Shown: piece after piece, positions 39,154-57,662 of the stretch
Layout of the letters: each line of letters begins with the position of its first letter
Position numbering within the stretch: position 1 is the first letter of the stretch
Assembly (NCBI GenBank): GCA_963666755.2
Contig: CAXXGW010000002.1
Location: 41,606-105,605, forward strand
DNA from: Candidatus Limiplasma sp.
Lineage (GTDB): Bacteria > Bacillota > Clostridia > Christensenellales > Aristaeellaceae
Length of the DNA stretch: 64,000 nt
Direction of reading: 5' to 3'
The notes under the pieces: generated by a model
Database searches by the model: none
Seen by the model: only the letters and a program-made list of their open reading frames with translations
Told to the model about the DNA's origin: nothing
Program-made: the position numbers and the translations under genes

Positions 39154-41478
39154 TTACAGGCTGTGCTTGACGCGGTCGTGCTCCTCGGCCCGCTTGGCGT
39201 TGTTGAAGCGATCCAGCGTACCCACCAGGTAACCCGTGATGCGCCGGATGCGCTCAAAGGCCTGATCCCCTTCGGCGCGGCCGCACTTGGGGCAGCAATC
39301 GCCGATGATGCCGTTGTAGCCGCACACGGGGTCGCGGTCTACCGGGTGGTTGATGCTGCCGTAGCCGATGCCCATATCGTGCATGTAGCGCACAACCTTC
39401 TCAAACGCGTCCAGATTCTTGGTGGGGTCGCCGTCCATCTCGATGTAGCTGATGTGCCCGGCGTTGGTCAGCGCGTGGTAGGGGGCCTCGATGGCAATTT
39501 TCTCAAACGCGTTGATGGGGTAATACACCGGCACATGGAAGCTGTTGGTGTAATATTCCCGATCCGTAACGCCCTTGATGGCGCCGTAACGCTCGCGGTC
39601 CAGCCGCACAAAGCGCCCGCTGAGCCCCTCGGCCGGGGTGGCCAGACAGGTGTAGTTCATGCCGGTTTTAGCGCTCATCTCATCGCAGAACTTACGCATA
39701 AAGCCCACGATTTCCAACCCCAGGTTCTGGCTGTTGGGATCCTCGCCGTGGTGGGTGCCGCGCAGGGCCACCAGCGCCTCCGCCAGCCCGATAAAGCCGA
39801 TGGAGAGTGTGCCGTGCATGAGCACCTCACGGATGGTGTCGTTCCAGCCAAGCTTTTCGCTGTCGATCCACACGCCTTCGCCCATCAGGAAGGGGAAGTT
39901 TTTAACCTTCTTGCTGGCGACAATCTCAAAGCGCTCCTGCAGCTGGCCCACCACGAGGTTCATCATCCGCTCCAGCTCTTCAAAGAACCACGCCACATCC
40001 CCTTTGGCCTTGATGGCGATGCGGGGCAGGTTCACGGTGGTAAAACTCAGGTTGCCGCGCCGGGGGCTGACTTCGCGCTCCGGGTCGTACACGTTACCCA
40101 TCACGCGCGTGCGGCAGCCCATGTAGGCGATTTCCGTTTCCGGGTGCCCTTCCTTGTAATACTTGAGGTTAAAGGGCGCGTCCAGAAAGCTGAAATTAGG
40201 GAACAGCCGCTTGGCGCTGGTGCGGATGGCCAGGCGGTACAGATCGTAGTTCGGATCGCCGGGGTTAAAGCTGACCCCTTCCTTGACGCGGAAAATCTGG
40301 ATGGGGAAAATCGGCGTTTCGCCGTTGCCAAGCCCTGCCTCGGTGGCCAGCAGGATGTTGCGCACCACCATGCGCCCCTCGGGCGAAGTATCCATGCCGT
40401 AGTTGATGGAGGAGAACGGCACCTGCGCGCCCGCGCGGCTGTTCATGGTGTTCAGGTTGTGGATGAGCGCCTCCATGGCCTGATAGGTGGCCTTGTCGGT
40501 CTCCTTCTCGGCATGCTCGCGCGTAAAATCGAGGATGCGCGTCAGTTGCTCGTCGTTCGCTTGCACGGCGGCGGCCAGCTTCTCCCGCAGGGCCTTGTCA
40601 AAGGCGGGGTCATGCGCCAGCGTAGGGCTTTTGCCGGTATCGGCCTTTACGGCAGCCAGCAGGGCCACGGCGGTGTCGGTCGCCTCCTCGGTGCCCAAAA
40701 GCAGCTCCAGCGCGCGCGCCAGATTGTCGCGGTAGCGCTTGTAGTAGGTCTTTTGCACGCCGGGGGCCATGCCGTAATCAAAATTGACAATGCTTTGCCC
40801 GCCGTGCTGATCGTTCTGGTTCGCCTGAATGGCGATGCAGCACAGCGCCGAGTAACTGTAAATATCGTTGGGCTCGCGCAGTACCCCATGCCCCGTGGAA
40901 AAACCGCCGTGGAACAGGCTTAACAGGTCGATCTGCGTGCAGGTGGTGGTCAGCGTATAAAAGTCCAGATCATGAATATGGATATCGCCCTCGCGGTGCG
41001 CCTTGGCGTGCACGGGGTTGAGCACGTACATATCGTAAAACTGCTTGCTGCCCTCGGAGCCGAACTTGAGCATCGCGCCCATGGCCGTATCGCCGTTAAT
41101 GTTGGCGTTTTCGCGCTTGATGTCCGAGTCCTTGGCATCCTTGTAGCAGATATCCTCAAAGGTCTTCATCAGGCGGGTGTTCATTTCCCGCACGCGGCTG
41201 CGCTCCGCGCGGTACAGGATGTAGGCCTTGGCCGAACGCACGAAGCCGTGCTCGATCAGCACCTTTTCCACCGTATCCTGCACCTGTTCGACGCTGGGGA
41301 CGCTGGGGATGCCCTCGTCGTTTTCCACCGTCGCCACAACAATAGCGGTCAGCTCCTGCGCGGTTTCCGCGCTTTTCTGGCTGCCGCTGGCCATAAAGCT
41401 CTTCTCGATCGCCTGCTCAATTTTATCGGGATCAAAGGGCACCACGCGACCGTCGCGCTTTTTAATGGATGTGATCAT
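39154..41478 (-). CDS. nrdD: anaerobic ribonucleoside-triphosphate reductase (class III)
   Basis: N-terminal ATP-cone (IKKRDGRVVPFDPDKIEQAI), C-terminal Zn-ribbon CPKCG and glycyl-radical motif RRITGYL. 774 aa. Confidence 0.95.
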   Translation of the reverse strand: MITSIKKRDGRVVPFDPDKIEQAIEKSFMASGSQKSAETAQELTAIVVATVENDEGIPSVPSVEQVQDTVEKVLIEHGFVRSAKAYILYRAERSRVREMNTRLMKTFEDICYKDAKDSDIKRENANINGDTAMGAMLKFGSEGSKQFYDMYVLNPVHAKAHREGDIHIHDLDFYTLTTTCTQIDLLSLFHGGFSTGHGVLREPNDIYSYSALCCIAIQANQNDQHGGQSIVNFDYGMAPGVQKTYYKRYRDNLARALELLLGTEEATDTAVALLAAVKADTGKSPTLAHDPAFDKALREKLAAAVQANDEQLTRILDFTREHAEKETDKATYQAMEALIHNLNTMNSRAGAQVPFSSINYGMDTSPEGRMVVRNILLATEAGLGNGETPIFPIQIFRVKEGVSFNPGDPNYDLYRLAIRTSAKRLFPNFSFLDAPFNLKYYKEGHPETEIAYMGCRTRVMGNVYDPEREVSPRRGNLSFTTVNLPRIAIKAKGDVAWFFEELERMMNLVVGQLQERFEIVASKKVKNFPFLMGEGVWIDSEKLGWNDTIREVLMHGTLSIGFIGLAEALVALRGTHHGEDPNSQNLGLEIVGFMRKFCDEMSAKTGMNYTCLATPAEGLSGRFVRLDRERYGAIKGVTDREYYTNSFHVPVYYPINAFEKIAIEAPYHALTNAGHISYIEMDGDPTKNLDAFEKVVRYMHDMGIGYGSINHPVDRDPVCGYNGIIGDCCPKCGRAEGDQAFERIRRITGYLVGTLDRFNNAKRAEEHDRVKHSL

Positions 41479-41647
41479 GGCGGTTCTCCTTTACTCTGCG
41501 CCCCCAAACCGCTTGCCGAGGGGGTGCAAAAGCACCGCGCACGGGAAGGCGCGTTCAGGAACGGTGAATCTTTTATGCGGCTGCGGCGGGCTGCCCTGCT
41601 GTTTGTTACAGTCGCGGCAGCACGTCGGTACGCTCCCATCGGATCGT

Positions 41648-41695
41648 TGCCATTATATTGTGTTGCAAACGGGATGTCAATACCATATCTAGAGT
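41648..41695 (-). promoter_or_regulatory. two candidate NrdR boxes overlapping the nrdD promoter
   Basis: On the minus strand: ACACAATATAATGGCA (41648-41663) and ACTCTAGATATGGTAT (41680-41695). Each is ~12/16 to the NrdR-box consensus acaCwAtATaTwGtgt. Their starts are 32 bp apart. Confidence 0.5.
41652..41680 (-). promoter_or_regulatory. consensus sigma-A promoter of nrdD
   Basis: On the minus strand: TTGACA (41675-41680), 17-nt spacer, TATAAT (41652-41657). This implies a ~165-nt leader. Confidence 0.8.
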
Positions 41696-41812
41696 TTTAT
41701 GTAACCTCCGCGCTGCAAATATGAAGAATAAATGAAGAATATAATGGCTTTTTATGGTTTTCCGCAGTTTTTCCTTGCGAAAATATTTTTAATCCATGGC
41801 GTTTTCCTTACG

Positions 41813-42882
41813 TTCTCCACAAAAACAGGGCCTTTTCGGCAGGTTCTCCACAGGCGCGCCGCAACCGGCAGCGGAAAAGTTACGAATAAAGGCACGGCGG
41901 TAAAACACCTGCACAACGCTTATCAGGCAGGCTTTTGGAGTCGCATTCCCAACCCACAGAGAAGCGCTCCCCTTGAAACAGAAATACAAGGGAAGAACAG
42001 TGTAAAGCCAGCCGGGTTGGCTGGGTAACCCATGCACATCGCAAAGACGCCCACGGCTGCAGCATTGAAAACAAATCATGGACGGAGAGATTTGCTTTTT
42101 GTTGTTGCAAGCGCGCCGCACTGGGCACAGAGGCCTTCACTCAGGGTTAGAACGTCGCGTTGCAAACACTGTTAGCAGTCAGTATCATGAGCGCTTTCCA
42201 CAGCATATGCACTGAACATGGCACAAAGCCCCTTCACACCGGTACAGAGCATAATGCAAACCATTGTGAGCAATGGCATAAACCACTTTCCATAGCAACC
42301 TTTTCGCAATCCAGATGCATGCCTCCGTTGGGAAACCCTGCATTCGCCATGGATTGCCCTGCTTGAAATGTTCATTCAATAGCACCTTACTATGCCCGGT
42401 CGAGCGTTTGATAATAGAAGCCCACACACCTTTTTACAGCCCATAAGCATGTGGTTTTACATAGCAGGAACATCCCCCACAAGAATCCTTCCTATTTTCT
42501 GTAACCTTGGACGCCGGCAACCGCGCTTTCCACCCCCTGTCCATACCTTTTCCACAGATTTCCCCTTGCGGTGCAGGCTTACCGTCCGCATGTTTTCCAC
42601 AGGTATGCAAGCCCTTATACAGGAGGCGAAACACGCCCGAAACGGGCTGCTTTTCCACAGGTTGCGCCATCGAACATCATCGCGGCGCAGGCTCGCAAAG
42701 TCTTACCTGTAAGGGCTTTGCATGTTTACACTTTGTTTGTGGGGCATCGCGGGAAACGTATGGCGCGATCCGTTTGTTTTCCCCATTTGCAAGGCATGTG
42801 CCGGGTGTTCCATGCGATTCCCTTGTCTTTTCCACAAAAGCGCAGCGCTCTGTCCACAGGGTTTCCCATGGGGTTTTCCACG
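41813..42882 (+). promoter_or_regulatory. cluster of ~9 same-orientation DnaA-box-like 9-mers in an ORF-poor, lower-GC region
   Basis: TTTTCCACA at 42548, 42593, 42651 and 42828. TTCTCCACA at 41813 and 41844. CTTTCCACA at 42194, CTGTCCACA at 42850 and TTTTCCACG at 42874. An AT-rich tract at 41717-41795 carries tandem ATGAAGAATA. Confidence 0.6.
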
Positions 42883-42926
42883 GGTCGCCCATACTTCCCC
42901 GCCCGCACTCACGTCCGCAAATCCCG

Positions 42927-42955
42927 TTGCCGAAACCCCGCGCATCTGCTATGAT
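42927..42955 (+). promoter_or_regulatory. sigma-A type promoter for the flavoprotein gene
   Basis: TTGCCG (42927-42932), 17-nt spacer, TATGAT (42950-42955). Confidence 0.55.
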
Positions 42956-42977
42956 ACGCAAGGAAGGGGGGGTGCAC

Positions 42978-44282
42978 ATGGAGATTGCCATCCTCGGCGG
43001 CGGCGCGGCAGGTCTGGCTGCGGCCCTCGCGGCGGCGGAACAGGGCACGCACGTAACCGTGCTGGAGCGCAACCGCAAGCCGCTTAAAAAGCTGGGCGTA
43101 ACCGGCAACGGCCGCGCCAATGTGCTCAACAGCGGCGCGCCCGCCTATTACGGCGATGCCGCCTTTGCCTGCGCGGTGCTGGGCCGCGTAGGGTACCCCG
43201 CGCTTTGCGCCTTTTTTGCAACGCTGGGCGTCCCCCTGCGGGAGGAAACCGAGGGCCGCGTGTACCCCGCCGCGCTGCAGGCCGCCGTGGTTGTGGAGGC
43301 GCTGCTGCTGCGCGCGGCGCAGCTGCGCATCACGTTTTTACCCCTGACGCGCGCCACGCAAATCGAGCGCACGCCGCAGGGCTTTGTACTGCACGCCGTA
43401 CAGACCGAGCCGACCGACGATGCCCCCCGCCGCGGCAAGCCCGCTGAACTGCCGCGCCAAACCCCGTATACCCTGCGGGCGGATCGCGTGATTGTGGCGG
43501 CAGGCGGCGCGGCCGCGCCGGTGCATGGCACCGACGGTTCCGCCTACACACTGCTGACCGGTCTGGGCCATCACCTGACCCCCACGTGCCCCGCGCTGTG
43601 CGCCCTGCGGGTGGAGCCGCGCCGCCTGACCGGGCTGACCGGCCAGCGGGTGCGCGCACGGCTGACCCTGCTGGCCCCGGACGGCCACCCACTGCACGCA
43701 GCCGCGGGTGAGGCACTGTTTGCTGAGGACGCAGTCAGCGGGATTGCCGCCATGCAGCTGGCGCGGTTCTATGTGCCGGGCGCTGCGCTGCTGCTGGACC
43801 TCCGCCCCGGGCTTGGGCTGACCGACCCGGCCGACGGAGCCGACGACACCGCCAAGGCGCTGCGCCGGTTAGCGCAGCAGCGCGCCGACTGCACGCTGGG
43901 CGATCTGCTGACCGGTGTTTGCACCGCGCCTGTCGCCCGCCTGCTCTGCCGGGAGGCCGGGCTACGCGACCTCGCCCTGCCCCTTGCGCACCTGCCGGAG
44001 GCTGCCATCCGGCGGCTGGCGGCTATGATCGCCGGGCTTAGCCTGCCTGTGGAGGGCACGCGCGGCTTTGACCAGGCGCAGGTGACCGCCGGGGGTATCG
44101 CGCCTGCCGATTTTGACCCTGCCACCCTGCAAAGCCGCCTCTGCCCCGGCCTGTACGCCGCCGGCGAGGTGCTGGACGTGGATGGCGATTGCGGAGGTTA
44201 CAACCTGATGTTTGCCTTTGCCAGCGGGCTTTTGGCCGGGCGCTCCGCCGCCGGGGATGCAAGCGCGCACCAACGAGAATGA
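42978..44282 (+). CDS. HI0933/BaiN-family NAD(P)/FAD-dependent oxidoreductase
   Basis: MEIAILGGGAAGLAAALAAAEQGTHVTVLERN is a dinucleotide-binding motif, followed by KKLGVTGNGRANVLN and the C-terminal GEVLDVDGDCGGYNL typical of this family. Confidence 0.85.
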   Translation: MEIAILGGGAAGLAAALAAAEQGTHVTVLERNRKPLKKLGVTGNGRANVLNSGAPAYYGDAAFACAVLGRVGYPALCAFFATLGVPLREETEGRVYPAALQAAVVVEALLLRAAQLRITFLPLTRATQIERTPQGFVLHAVQTEPTDDAPRRGKPAELPRQTPYTLRADRVIVAAGGAAAPVHGTDGSAYTLLTGLGHHLTPTCPALCALRVEPRRLTGLTGQRVRARLTLLAPDGHPLHAAAGEALFAEDAVSGIAAMQLARFYVPGAALLLDLRPGLGLTDPADGADDTAKALRRLAQQRADCTLGDLLTGVCTAPVARLLCREAGLRDLALPLAHLPEAAIRRLAAMIAGLSLPVEGTRGFDQAQVTAGGIAPADFDPATLQSRLCPGLYAAGEVLDVDGDCGGYNLMFAFASGLLAGRSAAGDASAHQRE

Positions 44283-45871: not shown

Positions 45872-48448
45872 TTACAGTTCGTCATCCTGCGGGGCGGGCG
45901 GTTCCGGCGTGCTGTCCTCCGCGTCAAAGGCGGTGGCGGTGCTTTCGCCAATCACGTCGGGGTCCTCACTGGTGATGGCCTCCACCGCTTCCTCCAGCGC
46001 ATCCTCGGTGGCGTCGTCCTCCTGCTCCTGCTCCGCTCGCGCCACGGCGACGATCTTGGTGCCCTCGCCAATGCGCATCAACCGCACGCCCTGCGCGTTG
46101 CGCCCGGTTTCGCGGATGGCCGCCGCCGCCATGCGGATGATGGTGCCGTCGTCGGTTACCAGCAGCACATCCTCGTCCTCACGCACGGCCATCTGGGCCA
46201 CCATCAGGCCGGTCTTGTCGTTCAGCTGCATGGCCTTTACGCCCATGCCGTTACGCCCCTGTTCGCGGTAAGCGTCGGGGTCGGTCAGCTTGCCGTAGCC
46301 GTTTTCGGTAATGCTGAGCACCTTCATGCCCTCGTCCAGCACGCTCATGTCGATCAGCACATCATTCTCACGCAGCTTCATGGCGTGCACGCCGCGTGCC
46401 ATGCGGCCCATGGGGCGCAGGGTGTCCGCTTCGTTAAAGCGGATAGCCTTGCCGTGCCGGCTGCCCAGCAGCAGCGTCTGCGCGCCGTCGGTCAGCTCCA
46501 CGCCGGCCAGCTCGTCCCCTTCGTTCAGGGTCAGGGCGATCAGCCCGGACTTACGCAGGTTGGCAAACTCGGCATACGGGGTCTTTTTAATATAGCCGCC
46601 GCGGGTCATCATCACCACGTTATGGTTATCCAGCTCCCGCGGTACGGGGATCATCGCGGTTACGCGTTCGTCGCCGCCCAGTGCCAGCAGGTTCACAATC
46701 GCGATGCCGCGCGCCGCGCGCCCCGCCTCGGGAATCTGGTAGCACTTAAGCGCGTACACGCGGCCCCGGTTGGTAAAGAAGAGAATCTCCTCATGGGTGT
46801 TGACAATGATCAGCTGCTTGACAAAATCCTCCTCGCGGGTCGCCATGCCGGCCACGCCGCGCCCGCCGCGGTGCTGCGCCCGGTAGGTGGATTTAGGCAG
46901 GCGCTTGATGTAGCCGAAGCTGGTCATGGTCACGACCATGTCGTCCGCCTGGATCAGGTCCTCAATGTCGATTTCACCTTCCAGATGCGTCAGCTCCGTG
47001 CGGCGCTCGTCGGCAAACTGATCGCGGATGGCGCTCATCTCGGTCTTAATCACGCCCAGCAGCAGCTGCTCGTCGTTCAGCAGGCTTTGCAGGTAGGCGA
47101 TCTGCTTTTCCAGCTCGCGGTATTCGTCCATCAGCTTATCGCGCTCCAGCCCCGTCAGGCGGGCCAGGCGCATATCGAGGATCGCCTGCGCCTGCTTATC
47201 GCTGAACTGGAAGCGCTCGATCAGCGCCGCGCGCGCCCCGGCCACATCCGGCGCGGTTTTAATGATCTGCACAATCTCGTCGATATGGTCCAGCGCCTTG
47301 AGCAGACCCTCCAAAATATGGGCGCGGGCCTCGGCCTTATCCAGCTCGTAACGGGTGCGGCGGGTAACGACTTCCTTCTGGTGGCGGATGTAGTGGTAGA
47401 GCATCTCCCGCAGGGTGAGCACCTTGGGTTCGCCATCCACCAGCGCCAGCATGTTCACGCCGAAGGTTTCCTGCAGCTGCGTGTGCTTGTACAGGGTATT
47501 GAGCATCACCTGCGGGTTCACGTCGCGCTTGAGCTCAATGACCACGCGCATGCCGTTGCGGTCGCTCTCATCGCGGATGTCGCTGATGCCGTCCACGCGC
47601 TTTTCGTGCACCAGCTCGGCGATTTTTTCCACCAGCTTGGCCTTGTTGACCATGTAGGGGATTTCGGTTACCACAATGCGCTGGCGGTTTTGCGGCATGG
47701 CCTCAATCTCGGTGCGGGCGCGCATCAGGATGCGACCGCGCCCCGTGTGGTACGCGGCGCGGATGCCGCTGTACCCGAGGATCAGCCCGCCCGTGGGGAA
47801 GTCCGGCCCTTTGATAAAGGTCATCAGATCGTCCACGCTGCAATCGGGGTGGTCGATCATGTACACGCAGCCGTCCACCACCTCGCGCAGGTTATGCGGG
47901 GGGATGTTGGTGGCCATGCCCACGGCAATGCCGCTGGAGCCGTTCACCAGCAGGTTGGGGAAGCGGCTGGGCAGCACCGTGGGCTGCATGAGGGTTTCGT
48001 CGAAGTTGGGGTAGAAATCGACGGTGTCCTTATCGATCTCACCCAGCAGGTGCATGGTCAGCTTGGACATGCGGGCTTCGGTGTAACGCATGGCGGCCGC
48101 GCCGTCGCCGTCCACCGAGCCGAAGTTGCCCTGCCCCTCCACCAGCATATAGCGGATGTTAAAATTCTGCGCCAGGCGCACCATCGCCTCGTAGACGCTG
48201 CTATCGCCGTGGGGGTGGTATTTACCCAGCACATCGCCCACGATGCGGGCGCTCTTGCGGTAAGGCTTGTCGGGGGTCATGCCCAGCTCGTTCATCGCGT
48301 AAAGAATGCGCCGGTGCACGGGCTTGAGGCCGTCGCGCACATCGGGCAGCGCGCGGTTAATAATAACCGCCATCGCATAGCTGATGAAGGAGGTCTTCAT
48401 TTCCCGTTCCAGGTCCGTCGGAATCAGTTTATCGATAATGTCAGACAT
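45872..48448 (-). CDS. gyrA: DNA gyrase subunit A
   Basis: [30 protein letters not shown], the active-site region [10 protein letters not shown] and a C-terminal beta-pinwheel with an acidic tail. Confidence 0.97.
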
Positions 48449-48520
48449 TCGTATGCTCCTTTGCGCACGCGGGGCGGGGTACGGCCGGGGGGCGAACCCC
48501 CGCGGCGGCCCGCGTCGCGC

Positions 48521-50635
<2,115 letters not shown>

Positions 50636-53758: not shown

Positions 53759-54008
53759 GCTCGTTCGCCTCCAGACAGAATGGGGCCGTATGGCTCGTAT
53801 CTTTCGACGCCCAAGCCCCAAAACCCTTGCTGTGAATGAAAAACATTCGTAACATTTAGCCGTCTGCCGATCCGGCGCGAATCGCGCAAACCCTTTCAAG
53901 GCAAAGTTTTTTCGCCTTGACAATACGTTACCAAGCCGTTACAATAAAGCCATCAAAGGCCGTTTTTATATCCTCGACGCGCGCCTTTTGGATAAGGAGG
54001 GACCCGCT

Positions 54009-57000
54009 ATGAAGTCTCATGCCGTTTCCCCGCTGCGCCGCCTGACGGCTGGATTGGTTACGCTGGCCCTGCTGCTTTGGCAGCTGGCTTTGCCCGTTTA
54101 CGCTTTCGCCCTCACCCAGGACGAAATAGCCGCCATGCCCACCGTGACGGTCAACTTTCAAACCGCGGAAGGCGGCCCTGTAAACCAGTTGGCCGCCACC
54201 CCCACCACGGACGCGACGGGCAAGGCCTACTGGATTACCCTGCCCGCCGAGGCGTTCAGCTACCCCGTAACGCTGAGCATCGTACCCAGCGCCGCCGCCC
54301 CCACCTACACCTTTACGCCGGACGCCAGCACCCCCGTGCAGCTGCCGCCCTCGCCTTCCGATTACACCGGGGAATCGGTGCTGCTGACCGCCTATCAGGA
54401 CGGCGTTGTGATGGAGGAGTACCACCTGTACCTTTCCACCGCGACGATGCCCGCTGAGGTGCCGCCCGCGACCGTGCCCGTTACGTACGTGGACGCAGCC
54501 GACCCCAACATTGTGCTGTATTCGGAAATGTTCACCGCCTATTATAACACCGATAACGTGGTCATGGCCGATTCCAGCCACGTGCCGGACGGCTATACCC
54601 TGCAGGGGGATAACGGCGCGTACGTGACTGTGGATGAGACCGGCACACCCTCGCCCGCCAGCGTGACTTTTTACTTCGCCAAGGCGGCCGTCAAGGGTAC
54701 GGTAACCGTCTACTATACCGATCTGGGCGGCAACGAGCTGGCCAGCCCCCAGACGCTTACGCTGGACCCCGGCACCTACCCGATTTCGCCGGACCTCAAT
54801 CTGGTGCCCGCGGGTTATACCCTGAGCGACACCACCCCCGCCCCGGTGGAAGTGACCATCGGCAGCGACGGCGTGGCCAGCCGCGAAGCCATTACCTTCG
54901 AGTTTGCCGAAACCGTGGTGGAAACCACCACCCCCGTAACGGATACGCCCACTACCGAAGCCCCGCAGACCGAAACCCCGACCACCGACACGCCCACAAC
55001 CGATACCCCCACCACCGATACGCCTACCACCGATACCCCGCCGGAAACCACCACCCCGGTGGAAACGACCGCCCCTGTGCTGACCCCGGTAAACCTGTAT
55101 GCGCAGGTGAGCAGCTCCACCGCCAACTTCCGTACCGAAACGAGCACCTCCAGCGCCAAGGCGTTTGCCGATGTAAGCAACGGCGCCTACCTGTGGGTGT
55201 ATGGCACGCTGGTTGTGCCCGACGATAAGGGCGTCGACGTGACGTGGGCCAAGATCGCCTACAACGGCACCGATTGCTATGTGTGGTACAGCCTGATTTC
55301 CGTGCTCAGCCAGGAGGACAGCGACGCCTACAACTACGCGCAGCCCTCCCCTGTGCCCGGCACCGAAACCCAGGCCCCTGTCGAAACCACCGCCAGCCCG
55401 AGCCCCAGCCCTAGCCCCTCGCCCCTGCCCGCGCAGGTTACGGGGTATTTCTACACGCTGGCCGAAGCCCCGATGGTGGCCGGCGCAGGCAGCGATACGA
55501 TTCTGGCGACCCTGCCCGCCAATACCGGCGTGTATGTGGAAGGGCAGAACTATCTGGACAGCGTCGCCTGGCATAAGGTGACCTATCAGGGCACCGCGGG
55601 CTACATCCGCGAGGATTATCTGCGCATGATGACCGCCGACGAGGTGACCGCCTTCCTGACCACGCCCTCGCCGTCGCCCTCCCCCTCCCTGTCGCCTTCG
55701 CCTTCGCCGACCGATTCTCCGTCCCCGTCGCCTTCGCCTTCCGTATCTCCGTCCGTGTCTCCGTCCGAATCGCCCAGCGCATCCCCGTCCCCCTCCGTGT
55801 CGCCCTCGCCTTCGCCCCTGCCGCAGTATGTGGGCTATGCCGTCACCACGGCGCAGACCGCCCTGCGGGATAACGCCAGTCTGGACGACAGCTCCATCAT
55901 CGTAACCCTGCCGGTGAACACGCTGCTGGTTCTGAACGGCCAGACCACGCTGAACGGCGTGGTGTGGACGGGCGCGCAGACGCGCCTTGGCACCAACTAC
56001 ATCGGCATTTTGCAGGACGCCTCGGTGCAGCGCATTACCGACGCGCAGGCGCAGGCCCTGATCGACGCCTACAATGCCGCGCACGCGACCCCGACGCCGA
56101 CCGTCACCCCCACGCCCACGCCGGTGCCCGCCCAGCTTTCGGGCTACTACATCACGCTGGGCACCGTGCCGCTGCGCACCGTGAACAGCAACTATGCCGA
56201 CGTGACCCTCTGGCTGGCCGCCAACACCGTGGTAAACGTGAGCGGGCAGGTGTATAACGAGGGCTACGGCTGGCACGTGAGCACCTACGGTCAGTATGTC
56301 GGCTACATCCGCGCCGACCAGATGCGCAAGCTGAGCGATGCCGAGGTGGAAGCCTATAAAAAGACGCTCTCCACCCCGACCCCGACCCCCGCATCCACCG
56401 CGCAGCCTTATAACCCCTATGCCGATTCCAGCTACGGGTACGTGTCGTCCAGCACGGTCAACTTCCGTGCCGAGCCCAGCAGCAGCGCCGCCAAGCTCAA
56501 GACGCTCAAGCAGTACGCTTTCGCGCTGATTCTGGGCTCCAAGACGGTTAACGGCACGCTGTGGTACAACATCAATCAGGCGGGCACCACCGGCTGGGTG
56601 GACGGCCGCTATTTCCAGGTGCTGAACCTTTCGGAGCTGAGCACCTTCCTCAACAGCAGCAACTACCTGGCGGGGCTGACCAACAACTCCACCTCGGGCA
56701 GCAGTTCCAGCTCCAGCTCCGGTTCCACCAGCAGTACCAGCGGCGGCAGCAGCGCGTCCGCTTCGCAGGGGCAGGTCAGCAGCGTGGAGGATTGGAACGT
56801 AGGCGTGTGGAAGAACCCCAGCGCAGGGCTGAGCGCCTCCTACGAGCCGTTCAACCCCTACGCGACGCCCACCGCGCCGCTCGTTTCCGCCAGCCCCACG
56901 CCCTCGCCGACCCCCACCTTTGTTGTCGGCACAATGATCCCCATCCCGTATGAAGAAGCCAGCACCGAAACGCAAACCGGCGGCAGCGGCTGGGTCGGCC

Positions 57001-57662
57001 TGGCCATCGGCGGTGTGGTGCTGCTGGGCGGCGCGGGCGGCGTATACGCCTACGCCCTGAACCAGAACAAGAAGCGCCGTCTGGCTGCCCGCGCGGCCAG
57101 CACCCGCCGTAACGTACCGCCCGCAGGTGTCGCAGGCGCAACAGGCGCAACGGCGGCCGGCAGCACCAGCCCCTATGCGCGGCGTGCCGTTGCGGCACCC
57201 CCGGCGGCGGGCTCCACCCAGCGGCAGGATCAAAGCGGCACGGGCGCAGCGCCGCGCGCCAACCCGTATGCGCAGCCCGCGCAACCCGCCAACCCTTACG
57301 CACGGCCCGCGAACCCGGCGGAAGGCGGCGCGGAGAACCCTTATGTAAGGCCCGTACAGCCTGCAAACCCCTATGCGCAGCCCATCGCAGGCGAAACCCA
57401 GCCCGCCAACCCCTACGCGCGGCCCACAGGCGCGCCGCGCACGCCTGGTGCCGCCCCACAGGCCGCGCCCACTGAGCCCACGCGGGCTGCCAACCCTTAC
57501 GCACAGCCCCGCACGCCTGTGGACCCGTACGCGCAGCGCTCGCCTTCCAACCCCTACGCAAGCACTCCGCAGGGCGAAACCACCGAGCCGGTGAACCCCA
57601 CGCCGCGGCGCACCACCCGCATGAGCCGCCACCAGAACCCGGATGATTCCGGCGAGGCCTGA
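54009..57662 (+). CDS. 1217-aa cell-surface protein: signal peptide, MucBP-like modules, (PTTDT)n and (SP)n linkers, several SH3b domains, C-terminal TM and Pro-rich tail
   Basis: AAGGAGGG lies upstream of ATG 54009. At least four SH3_3-like units are present (e.g. ANFRTETSTSSAKAFADVSNGAYLWVYG…, TVNFRAEPSSSAAKLKTLKQYAF…). The TM is GWVGLAIGGVVLLGGAGGVYAYAL, followed by NPYA(Q/R)P repeats. Confidence 0.8.
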   Translation: MKSHAVSPLRRLTAGLVTLALLLWQLALPVYAFALTQDEIAAMPTVTVNFQTAEGGPVNQLAATPTTDATGKAYWITLPAEAFSYPVTLSIVPSAAAPTYTFTPDASTPVQLPPSPSDYTGESVLLTAYQDGVVMEEYHLYLSTATMPAEVPPATVPVTYVDAADPNIVLYSEMFTAYYNTDNVVMADSSHVPDGYTLQGDNGAYVTVDETGTPSPASVTFYFAKAAVKGTVTVYYTDLGGNELASPQTLTLDPGTYPISPDLNLVPAGYTLSDTTPAPVEVTIGSDGVASREAITFEFAETVVETTTPVTDTPTTEAPQTETPTTDTPTTDTPTTDTPTTDTPPETTTPVETTAPVLTPVNLYAQVSSSTANFRTETSTSSAKAFADVSNGAYLWVYGTLVVPDDKGVDVTWAKIAYNGTDCYVWYSLISVLSQEDSDAYNYAQPSPVPGTETQAPVETTASPSPSPSPSPLPAQVTGYFYTLAEAPMVAGAGSDTILATLPANTGVYVEGQNYLDSVAWHKVTYQGTAGYIREDYLRMMTADEVTAFLTTPSPSPSPSLSPSPSPTDSPSPSPSPSVSPSVSPSESPSASPSPSVSPSPSPLPQYVGYAVTTAQTALRDNASLDDSSIIVTLPVNTLLVLNGQTTLNGVVWTGAQTRLGTNYIGILQDASVQRITDAQAQALIDAYNAAHATPTPTVTPTPTPVPAQLSGYYITLGTVPLRTVNSNYADVTLWLAANTVVNVSGQVYNEGYGWHVSTYGQYVGYIRADQMRKLSDAEVEAYKKTLSTPTPTPASTAQPYNPYADSSYGYVSSSTVNFRAEPSSSAAKLKTLKQYAFALILGSKTVNGTLWYNINQAGTTGWVDGRYFQVLNLSELSTFLNSSNYLAGLTNNSTSGSSSSSSSGSTSSTSGGSSASASQGQVSSVEDWNVGVWKNPSAGLSASYEPFNPYATPTAPLVSASPTPSPTPTFVVGTMIPIPYEEASTETQTGGSGWVGLAIGGVVLLGGAGGVYAYALNQNKKRRLAARAASTRRNVPPAGVAGATGATAAGSTSPYARRAVAAPPAAGSTQRQDQSGTGAAPRANPYAQPAQPANPYARPANPAEGGAENPYVRPVQPANPYAQPIAGETQPANPYARPTGAPRTPGAAPQAAPTEPTRAANPYAQPRTPVDPYAQRSPSNPYASTPQGETTEPVNPTPRRTTRMSRHQNPDDSGEA

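Follow-up and report, generated by a model that had tools for sequence, protein, structure and literature searches.

DnaA control is established for the nrdAB promoter of Escherichia coli. In Bacillus subtilis, DnaA binds stably to six DnaA-box clusters (DBCs) outside the origin, several of which regulate adjacent genes and which together restrain initiation (Ishikawa 2007 PMC2533591; Okumura 2012 PMC3245932); such clusters are expected by the authors to be common in Firmicutes (PMC3245932). An origin-like DnaA-box cluster in Pseudomonas aeruginosa, termed 'oriCII', regulates gidA (PMC13438810). Here we describe a cluster of DnaA boxes in a stretch of 64,000 nucleotides from Candidatus Limiplasma sp. 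(contig CAXXGW010000002.1 of assembly GCA_963666755.2, positions 41,606 to 105,605; hereafter the window). The cluster occupies the gap between nrdD, which encodes the anaerobic ribonucleoside-triphosphate reductase, and the divergent gene of a flavoprotein (window positions 41479-42977). Judged from the sequence and its relatives, the gap is probably a non-origin DnaA-binding region, in which two operator-like groups of boxes, all of one polarity, would couple the transcription of nrdD and of the flavoprotein gene to the replication-initiation potential.

DnaA boxes in the gap

A first-pass annotation of the window had reported a dense cluster of DnaA boxes in one orientation, within a region poor in open reading frames (ORFs) and of lower GC content. 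These observations hold. All the boxes that had been listed were recovered in a motif scan, comprising exact TTTTCCACA boxes at 42548, 42593, 42651 and 42828 on the plus strand, TTCTCCACA at 41813 and 41844, CTTTCCACA at 42194, CTGTCCACA at 42850 and TTTTCCACG at 42874. The consensus TTWTNCACA is found 10 times in the 64-kb window, where 1.95 matches are expected, and none of 100 shuffles reaches 10. That such AT-rich 9-mers would hardly recur by chance was likewise borne out: in simulations with the lower-GC composition of the gap itself, the plus strand of the gap is expected to contain 0.039 exact boxes and 0.79 boxes with at most one mismatch, and the observed numbers of 4 and 10 (four exact and six with one mismatch) were not reached in any of 1000 simulations. 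The minus strand of the gap contains no box with at most one mismatch. The gap has a GC content of 0.52, compared to 0.64–0.66 in its flanks, and contains no ORF with a GC content at third codon positions (GC3) of the coding type, by which a coding function of the gap was rejected.

The gap was compared with about 100 related loci (denoted L) from Christensenellales / 'Ca. Limiplasma' metagenome-assembled genomes (MAGs) and metagenome contigs. MAGs labelled Christensenellales / 'Candidatus Limiplasma' are nearest to the window, with L085 (GCA_034927625; 93%) and L086 (83%) closest by flavoprotein identity. An alignment with these two loci reveals four conserved islands (41479-41860, 42520-42662, 42777-42886 and 42925-42960), and the DnaA boxes are located within the conserved islands of a gap that otherwise diverges; its middle part, from about 41880 to 42520, is diverged and partly deleted. 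In whole-gap alignments with distant relatives little is conserved beyond the boxes. An unbiased k-mer enrichment over seven homologous gaps returned only pieces of GGTTTTCCACAG, and in these gaps all 36 copies of TTTCCAC are on the same strand. When one mismatch is allowed, 62 boxes in eight independent lineages point one way and 11 the other way.

The boxes are also regularly spaced. Additional degenerate boxes at 42527, 42537, 42559 and 42861 are in helical phase with the strong ones, and across the lineages the start-to-start distances between successive boxes, 87 in all, fall at 11–12 bp (n=26), 21–24 bp (n=14) and 32–36 bp (n=6). This quantisation at multiples of about 11 bp puts the sites on the same side of the helix, the arrangement to be anticipated for DnaA oligomers that bind co-operatively. 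Because strong boxes alternate with weak ones every 11 bp along that face, DnaA probably binds here as co-operatively assembled oligomers.

Several other candidate descriptions of the gap were rejected. No likeness to a plasmid origin or to iterons was found. The gap contains internal module duplications, but a tandem unit of about 250 bp was dismissed, as only partial modules of 42–59 nt recur. A known RNA was likewise discarded, as the gap has no match in Rfam (at the gathering threshold and also at E<=5) or in a tRNA search, and the nrdD leader is not significantly structured.

The nrdD promoter and its upstream boxes

The left-hand part of the gap contains the nrdD promoter and the first group of boxes (Group A):

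39154-41478, minus strand: nrdD, the left-hand target gene, encoding an anaerobic ribonucleoside-triphosphate reductase with ATP-cone, NRDD and glycyl-radical domains (Pfam NRDD, E=1.7e-201; ATP-cone, E=2.4e-22)
41479-41645, minus strand: 5′ leader of nrdD, about 165 nt, nearly invariant relative to L085 and L086, with no Rfam match and folding no better than shuffled sequences (z=-0.53)
41648-41663 and 41680-41695, minus strand: two NrdR-box-like 16-bp palindromes, 32 bp apart, overlapping the nrdD -10 and -35 elements
41652-41680, minus strand: sigma-70-type promoter of nrdD, TTGACA-17-TATAAT, matching the consensus at 12 of 12 positions
41717-41795: AT-rich tract (AT 0.80) with a conserved AAATATTTTTAATCCATGG motif, which is kept in L090, L091, L092 and L104
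41758-41852, plus strand: Group A, nrdD-proximal boxes TTTTCCGCA at 41758, weak TTTTTCCTT at 41768, weak TTTTCCTTA at 41804, and TTCTCCACA at 41813 and 41844, from the motif scan, with homologous boxes in relatives

Measured from the nrdD -35 element, Group A boxes start at 86, 141 and 172 bp on the upstream side. Of 80 loci from an NrdD-based scan of metagenomes, 28 encode an NrdD at least 82% identical and have a locatable promoter. In 27 of these 28 loci at least two boxes of the same orientation lie within 400 bp upstream of the -35 element, often as exact matches and at homologous positions; among nrdD loci with less than 80% NrdD identity, such a set of boxes upstream of the -35 element is found in only one of 12. 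Across nrdD loci the Group A boxes concentrate at -86 to -130 and at -236 to -260 from the -35 element. An alignment in the sense of nrdD shows a tandem pair GTGGAAAnnnTGTGGAAAAC upstream of the core formed by the NrdR box, -35 and -10 elements. The promoter core is kept across nrdD loci, including those that have no boxes, and the same is true for the two palindromes, which by eye look like NrdR boxes.

The boxes accompany nrdD in different surroundings. The upstream neighbours of box-bearing nrdD loci are of at least six kinds (DUF4342, FkbM methyltransferase, TRIC-type channel, RpiR regulator, an unknown gene and the flavoprotein), and in some relatives the intergenic region is merely 0.23–0.5 kb long, with two to four boxes between ordinary genes. 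In L006 (3713-12159) the flanks match those of the cluster-less loci L087 (6918-12273) and L088, with the arrangement methyltransferase-DUF624-DUF362 / flavoprotein-LMWPc. Relative to L087 and L088, nrdD and the box cluster are inserted in L006 between DUF362 and the flavoprotein gene, which suggests a joint movement of nrdD with its operator.

The AT-rich tract had been put forward as a possible unwinding element. Its tandem ATGAAGAATA repeat is real (11-mer ATGAAGAATAW at 41721-41746; period 11 and 2.2 copies in Tandem Repeats Finder), but the boxes are oriented away from the tract, which lies on their 5′ side and forms part of the conserved region upstream of the nrdD promoter. From this context it is best read as upstream promoter DNA of nrdD and not as a correctly placed DNA unwinding element (DUE).

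The flavoprotein promoter and its upstream boxes

The second group of boxes (Group B) precedes the flavoprotein gene on the right-hand side:

41880-42520: variable, diverged spacer in which a single semi-conserved box occurs (CTTTCCACA at 42194); L086, at 83% identity, has large deletions here
42520-42662, plus strand: Group B island 1, a phased array of CTTTCCACC at 42527, CTGTCCATA at 42537, TTTTCCACA at 42548 and ATTTCCCCT at 42559 (spacing 10–11 bp), followed by exact boxes at 42593 and 42651; sharply conserved relative to L085 and L086
42702-42713: palindrome CTTACCTGTAAG, a possible accessory-factor site, member of an enriched palindrome class
42777-42886, plus strand: Group B island 2, a promoter-proximal phased array of TTTTCCCCA at 42777, TTTTCCACA at 42828, CTGTCCACA at 42850, GTTTCCCAT at 42861 and TTTTCCACG at 42874; invariant relative to L085 and L086
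42927-42955, plus strand: flavoprotein promoter TTGCCG-17-(TG)TATGAT with core ATCTGCTATGATA, from a promoter scan and conservation
42978-44282, plus strand: the right-hand target gene, encoding an HI0933-like / aminoacetone-oxidase-family FAD enzyme (Pfam HI0933_like, E=3.7e-54; source name of the 93% homologue P0121)
45872-50632, minus strand: gyrA and gyrB (Pfam)

The promoter core ATCTGCTATGATA is invariant in the window, L085, L086, L001-L005 and L014, at 21–22 nt before the start codon. In nine of the 10 cluster-bearing loci a phased box array lies 40–75 bp upstream of the flavoprotein -35 element. Group B is also present without an adjacent nrdD, in L001, L014 and L004, where the left neighbour is a fructose-bisphosphate aldolase or a MarR-family gene. 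In relatives that have no boxes the flavoprotein gene either abuts the upstream gene or is separated from it by a gap of only 150 bp; where it abuts, it is operon-internal and has no promoter of its own. The cluster is restricted to a sublineage, and the sister lineages lack it and have an operon-internal flavoprotein gene. For both nrdD and the flavoprotein gene, the boxes are found at conserved positions and are kept with the gene across contexts, as in a DnaA-regulated promoter.

The core ATCTGCTATGATA stays invariant across genomes of 52–64% GC, and it resembles the dnaA promoter CCATCTGCTATGATT of L082 (9840-9860). A derivation of the flavoprotein promoter from the dnaA promoter was rejected, the likeness being confined to the extended -10 element.

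Palindromes of the type CTTAY-N(0-7)-RTAAG are located between box arrays in the window (42702-42713) and in L002 (9518), L005 (9519) and L014 (9666). Their density is 0.50 per kb inside the gaps and 0.022 per kb elsewhere, an enrichment of about 20-fold, with one palindrome per gap in some lineages only. The palindromes may be sites for an accessory factor.

The DnaA protein of the clade

The boxes share an extended consensus, G-TT(T>A)TCCACA, and tandem copies of this site stand at the dnaA promoters of three lineages. This is the classical autoregulatory arrangement, which makes DnaA the likely binder of the boxes. The DnaA of the clade (L082:10001-11326, P0053, and related proteins) is nevertheless unusual. 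In an alignment to B. subtilis DnaA (PDB 8BTG), its domain IV reads LTKIG...GGRHYTTVMSS in place of the canonical LPKIG...GGRDHTTVIHA, and the canonical signature is found in only one of 118 full-length DnaA matches. The residues of DnaA that contact bases are R399, P423, D433, H434, T435 and H439 in E. coli numbering (PMC2533591). Four of these six are changed in the clade (P423T, D433H, H434Y and H439S), a point that counts against DnaA-mediated control of the two genes. The boxes nonetheless match TTWTNCACA, with a preference for T at position 3 and with a 5′ G. With four of the six base-reading residues changed, the case for recognition of the classical box comes from the distribution of the sites and not from conserved chemistry.

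These changes leave room for a different binder: the GTTTTCCACAGG element might be the target of some other protein, or act at the RNA level, and merely resemble a DnaA box. The non-canonical signature (LTKIG...RHYTTVMSS for LPKIG...RDHTTVIHA) and the extended consensus, with G at position 0, could both point to another protein, and the absolute polarity could reflect a transcribed element. The tandem sites at the dnaA promoters of the three lineages, however, have this extended form as well, 5′ G included. An RNA-level element is disfavoured by the position of the boxes upstream of both mapped promoters, which means that they are probably not transcribed, by the lack of any Rfam family or conserved hairpin context, and by the 11-bp phasing, a property of a DNA face. 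Both variants of this explanation are considered very unlikely.

The dnaA gene is solitary in L081 (10001-11330), L082-L084 and L022 (20224-21204), with no dnaN-recF-gyrBA downstream, and its upstream regions contain only three to five boxes. The complete chromosome OY776489.1 (L002) measures 3.456 Mb and has its box cluster at about 1.297 Mb; its DnaA is not among the DnaA matches listed, and amino-acid composition did not discriminate between candidates. A conserved gene of unknown function (151–163 aa) is divergent from the clade's dnaA. In L081 dnaA is split into parts of 374 and 79 aa, probably by a long-read frameshift, and an ISL3 transposase lies beside the rpoA-rplQ operon, 7 kb from dnaA.

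The gap as a possible replication origin

The first-pass annotation had left a choice between an origin-like locus and a titration or regulatory locus. As in origins of the oriC type, the gap contains a cluster of DnaA boxes, and it could in principle be the chromosomal origin of the lineage, detached from dnaA, where DnaA assembles on the polar arrays and opens the DNA nearby. This idea is encouraged by the solitary dnaA genes of the clade, with their few upstream boxes, and by the gap itself, a long and conserved non-coding stretch with more boxes than the promoter regions of dnaA. In several loci the genes diverge from the gap. The 11-bp phased arrays of one orientation resemble the DnaA-oligomerisation regions of origins, and an AT-rich tract is present at one edge of the gap.

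The further evidence points away from an origin. The cumulative GC skew has no switch at the gap and is falling or negative on both sides in the window. When the GC3 skew is separated gene by gene into a coding and a replication term, using flanks of only 10–40 kb per locus, the pooled replication-linked half-step at the gap is -0.003 +/- 0.015 (94 genes, six independent loci). The replication term has the same sign on the two sides in L002 (+0.139 +/- 0.066 and +0.186 +/- 0.072) and in L005 (+0.125 and +0.119); in L004 and L006 the GC3 skew terms are confounded by gene orientation. In B. subtilis, Clostridioides difficile and most bacteria, DnaA-trios and a DUE follow a box, read as TTATCCACA, on its 3′ side at a distance of at most 16 nt (PMC8287927, PMC7561715). 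Neither the window nor any of 12 homologous gaps, those of 1.7–2.4 kb included, has such a box-DnaA-trio-DUE module (at most 16 nt, 3′ of a box), and scans for the parts of this basal unwinding system (BUS) gave only weak, chance-like matches. The sole AT-rich tract (41717-41795) stands on the 5′ and thus wrong side of the boxes, which face away from it.

The gene neighbourhood is also not that of an origin. As the first-pass annotation had itself cautioned, neither dnaA nor dnaN is present in the window, and gyrBA is transcribed head-on to the gap; a tblastn search found dnaA in L022 only. The identities of gyrA, gyrB, nrdD and the flavoprotein gene that it had assigned agree with Pfam. The Pfam annotation shows none of rpmH, rnpA, yidC, jag, mnmEG, rsmG and parAB in the window or its relatives. 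In addition, the cluster is missing from sister lineages, and relatives with the short version carry it between ordinary genes. The gap as chromosomal replication origin is therefore not supported and appears highly improbable; of the first-pass proposal it is the regulatory part that is supported, as the boxes are locked to the promoters. No greater chance is given to a more particular form of the origin idea, in which the gap would be the working origin of the Limiplasma sublineage, detached from the solitary dnaA and using one-directional phased arrays and a DnaA with an altered surface, with no box-trio-DUE module.

No skew switch was found in the flanks of dnaA, and the genes point toward dnaA in L082; the dnaA-upstream regions were accordingly rejected as a clear origin.

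Proposed regulation and titration by DnaA

Under the favoured reading, that of a non-origin regulatory region, DnaA would bind upstream of both divergent promoters, at Group A for nrdD and at Group B for the flavoprotein gene. How far the boxes are occupied would depend on the cellular level of DnaA (DnaA-ATP), and transcription of the two genes would thereby be coupled to the replication-initiation potential. By analogy with nrdAB of E. coli, the direction of regulation may be repression at high DnaA-ATP. The earlier suggestion that DnaA controls nrdD and/or the divergent flavoprotein gene is strengthened by the near-universal boxes at conserved positions of the closer nrdD loci and by the second set of boxes, which is locked to the flavoprotein promoter. 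Control of nrdD appears to be the best-documented part of the regulatory or titration reading and is supported by this comparison. In evolutionary terms, a short ancestral nrdD operator may have grown into a kilobase-scale cluster in the sublineage.

Besides the altered DnaA signature, three observations weigh against this reading. The boxes lie upstream of both promoters and not over them, their centres being at about -85 to -130, and farther out, relative to the flavoprotein start site, so that neither the sign nor the strength of any regulation follows from their position. More than ten boxes over 1.2 kb exceed what a simple operator needs. Finally, the Ishikawa density score A of the window is 0.20, below the mark of 0.3 above which binding is stable in B. 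subtilis, a mark that was calibrated on that other species and ignores weak phased sites. The score is five times that of any other site in the 64 kb, and scores range from 0.07 to 0.73 in the gaps of relatives and from 0.25 to 0.88 at dnaA promoters.

The excess of boxes could also mean that the primary role of the gap is titration or inactivation of DnaA, of the datA or B. subtilis DBC type, buffering free DnaA and delaying re-initiation, with incidental effects on the promoters. The gap has an intergenic cluster of at least four close boxes (at most one mismatch) outside oriC, as in DBCs of the B. subtilis type. The spread of the boxes over 1.2–2 kb, the persistence of the cluster while either neighbour changes, and the internal module duplications, which suggest selection for added sites, agree with such a role. 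The neighbours, gyrBA in the window and tilS-hpt in relatives, are of an origin-proximal type, both being origin-proximal genes in B. subtilis. DBCs tend toward the vicinity of oriC, and their expected frequency in Firmicutes fits as well (PMC3245932). On the other hand, many relatives keep only two to six boxes at fixed distances from the nrdD -35 element, which is the behaviour of an operator, each group of boxes is locked to a promoter, the density score is under the B. subtilis threshold, and sister lineages are entirely without the cluster. As a primary role titration is judged unlikely. Titration at the gap as such is plausible, and because a cluster of kilobase size must hold a sizeable share of the cellular DnaA, buffering like that of DBCs or datA would be a likely by-product of the operator function.

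If correct, control of both genes by DnaA would provide, from comparative genomics, a clear case in which DnaA serves uncultivated Clostridia of the gut as a cell-cycle transcription factor, and would extend the DnaA–ribonucleotide reductase link of E. coli to a class III enzyme. The locus would also illustrate how a kilobase-scale DnaA-box cluster may arise from a short operator and be mistaken for oriC by origin-prediction programs, a practical caution for Ori-Finder-type annotation of MAGs with a solitary dnaA. Specialists may find the variant DNA-reading signature of DnaA more interesting than the cluster.

Other features of the window

An ORF of 1224 aa on the plus strand (53988-57662) contains one SH3_3 domain, and the local GC skew is unusually negative there (-0.13 to -0.17). 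It is overlapped on the opposite strand by an ORF of 1366 aa without a Pfam match. A tRNA-Leu(TAA) gene (15719-15800) overlaps the mechanical start of an EamA-family ORF (15705-16760), and the true start of that gene thus lies further downstream.

Comparison with known systems

Origins with a basal unwinding system (PMC8287927, PMC6669920, PMC7561715) share with the gap multiple boxes and 11-bp arrays of the same orientation. Unlike these origins, the gap has no DnaA-trios or DUE 3′ of its boxes, no skew switch and no adjacent dnaA or dnaN, and it is not present clade-wide. The datA locus of E. coli is similarly a non-origin locus with several DnaA boxes, which lowers the initiation potential. 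However, datA acts by IHF-dependent DnaA-ATP hydrolysis on four to five boxes, the gap shows no demonstrable IHF site or homology to it, and Firmicutes use different regulators. The 'oriCII' cluster of P. aeruginosa also looks like an origin and precedes the promoter of a gene for a FAD enzyme, and it acts in DnaA-dependent transcription (PMC13438810). In contrast to the gap, it is located in the true origin region, by gidAB-parAB, and the flavoprotein described here (434 aa, HI0933-like) is not GidA/MnmG.

The B. subtilis DBCs (in the sda, ywlC, yydA, vpr, gcp and thdF regions) and the gap are alike in being intergenic Firmicute box clusters outside oriC, located beside promoters and conserved among relatives. 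In B. subtilis DnaA regulates the adjoining promoters and the clusters are thought to hold DnaA; for the gap the counterpart of these functions is predicted from its sequence. The core of a DBC measures about 50–100 bp and has four to eight boxes, whereas the gap extends over 1.2–2 kb, with several phased arrays, a near-single polarity and a variable spacer. The gap further differs in its score (A=0.20, under the cut-off), its target genes (nrdD and the HI0933-like flavoprotein gene) and the lack of sequence homology. With E. coli nrdAB it shares DnaA boxes upstream of a ribonucleotide reductase promoter together with putative NrdR-type control, an arrangement that would link the deoxynucleotide supply to initiation. 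In the gap the gene is a class III anaerobic nrdD of Clostridia, and the boxes are farther away (86–260 bp from the -35 element), more numerous and of one orientation. The near-absolute polarity, the kilobase length and the two promoter-anchored groups are the unusual features of the cluster.

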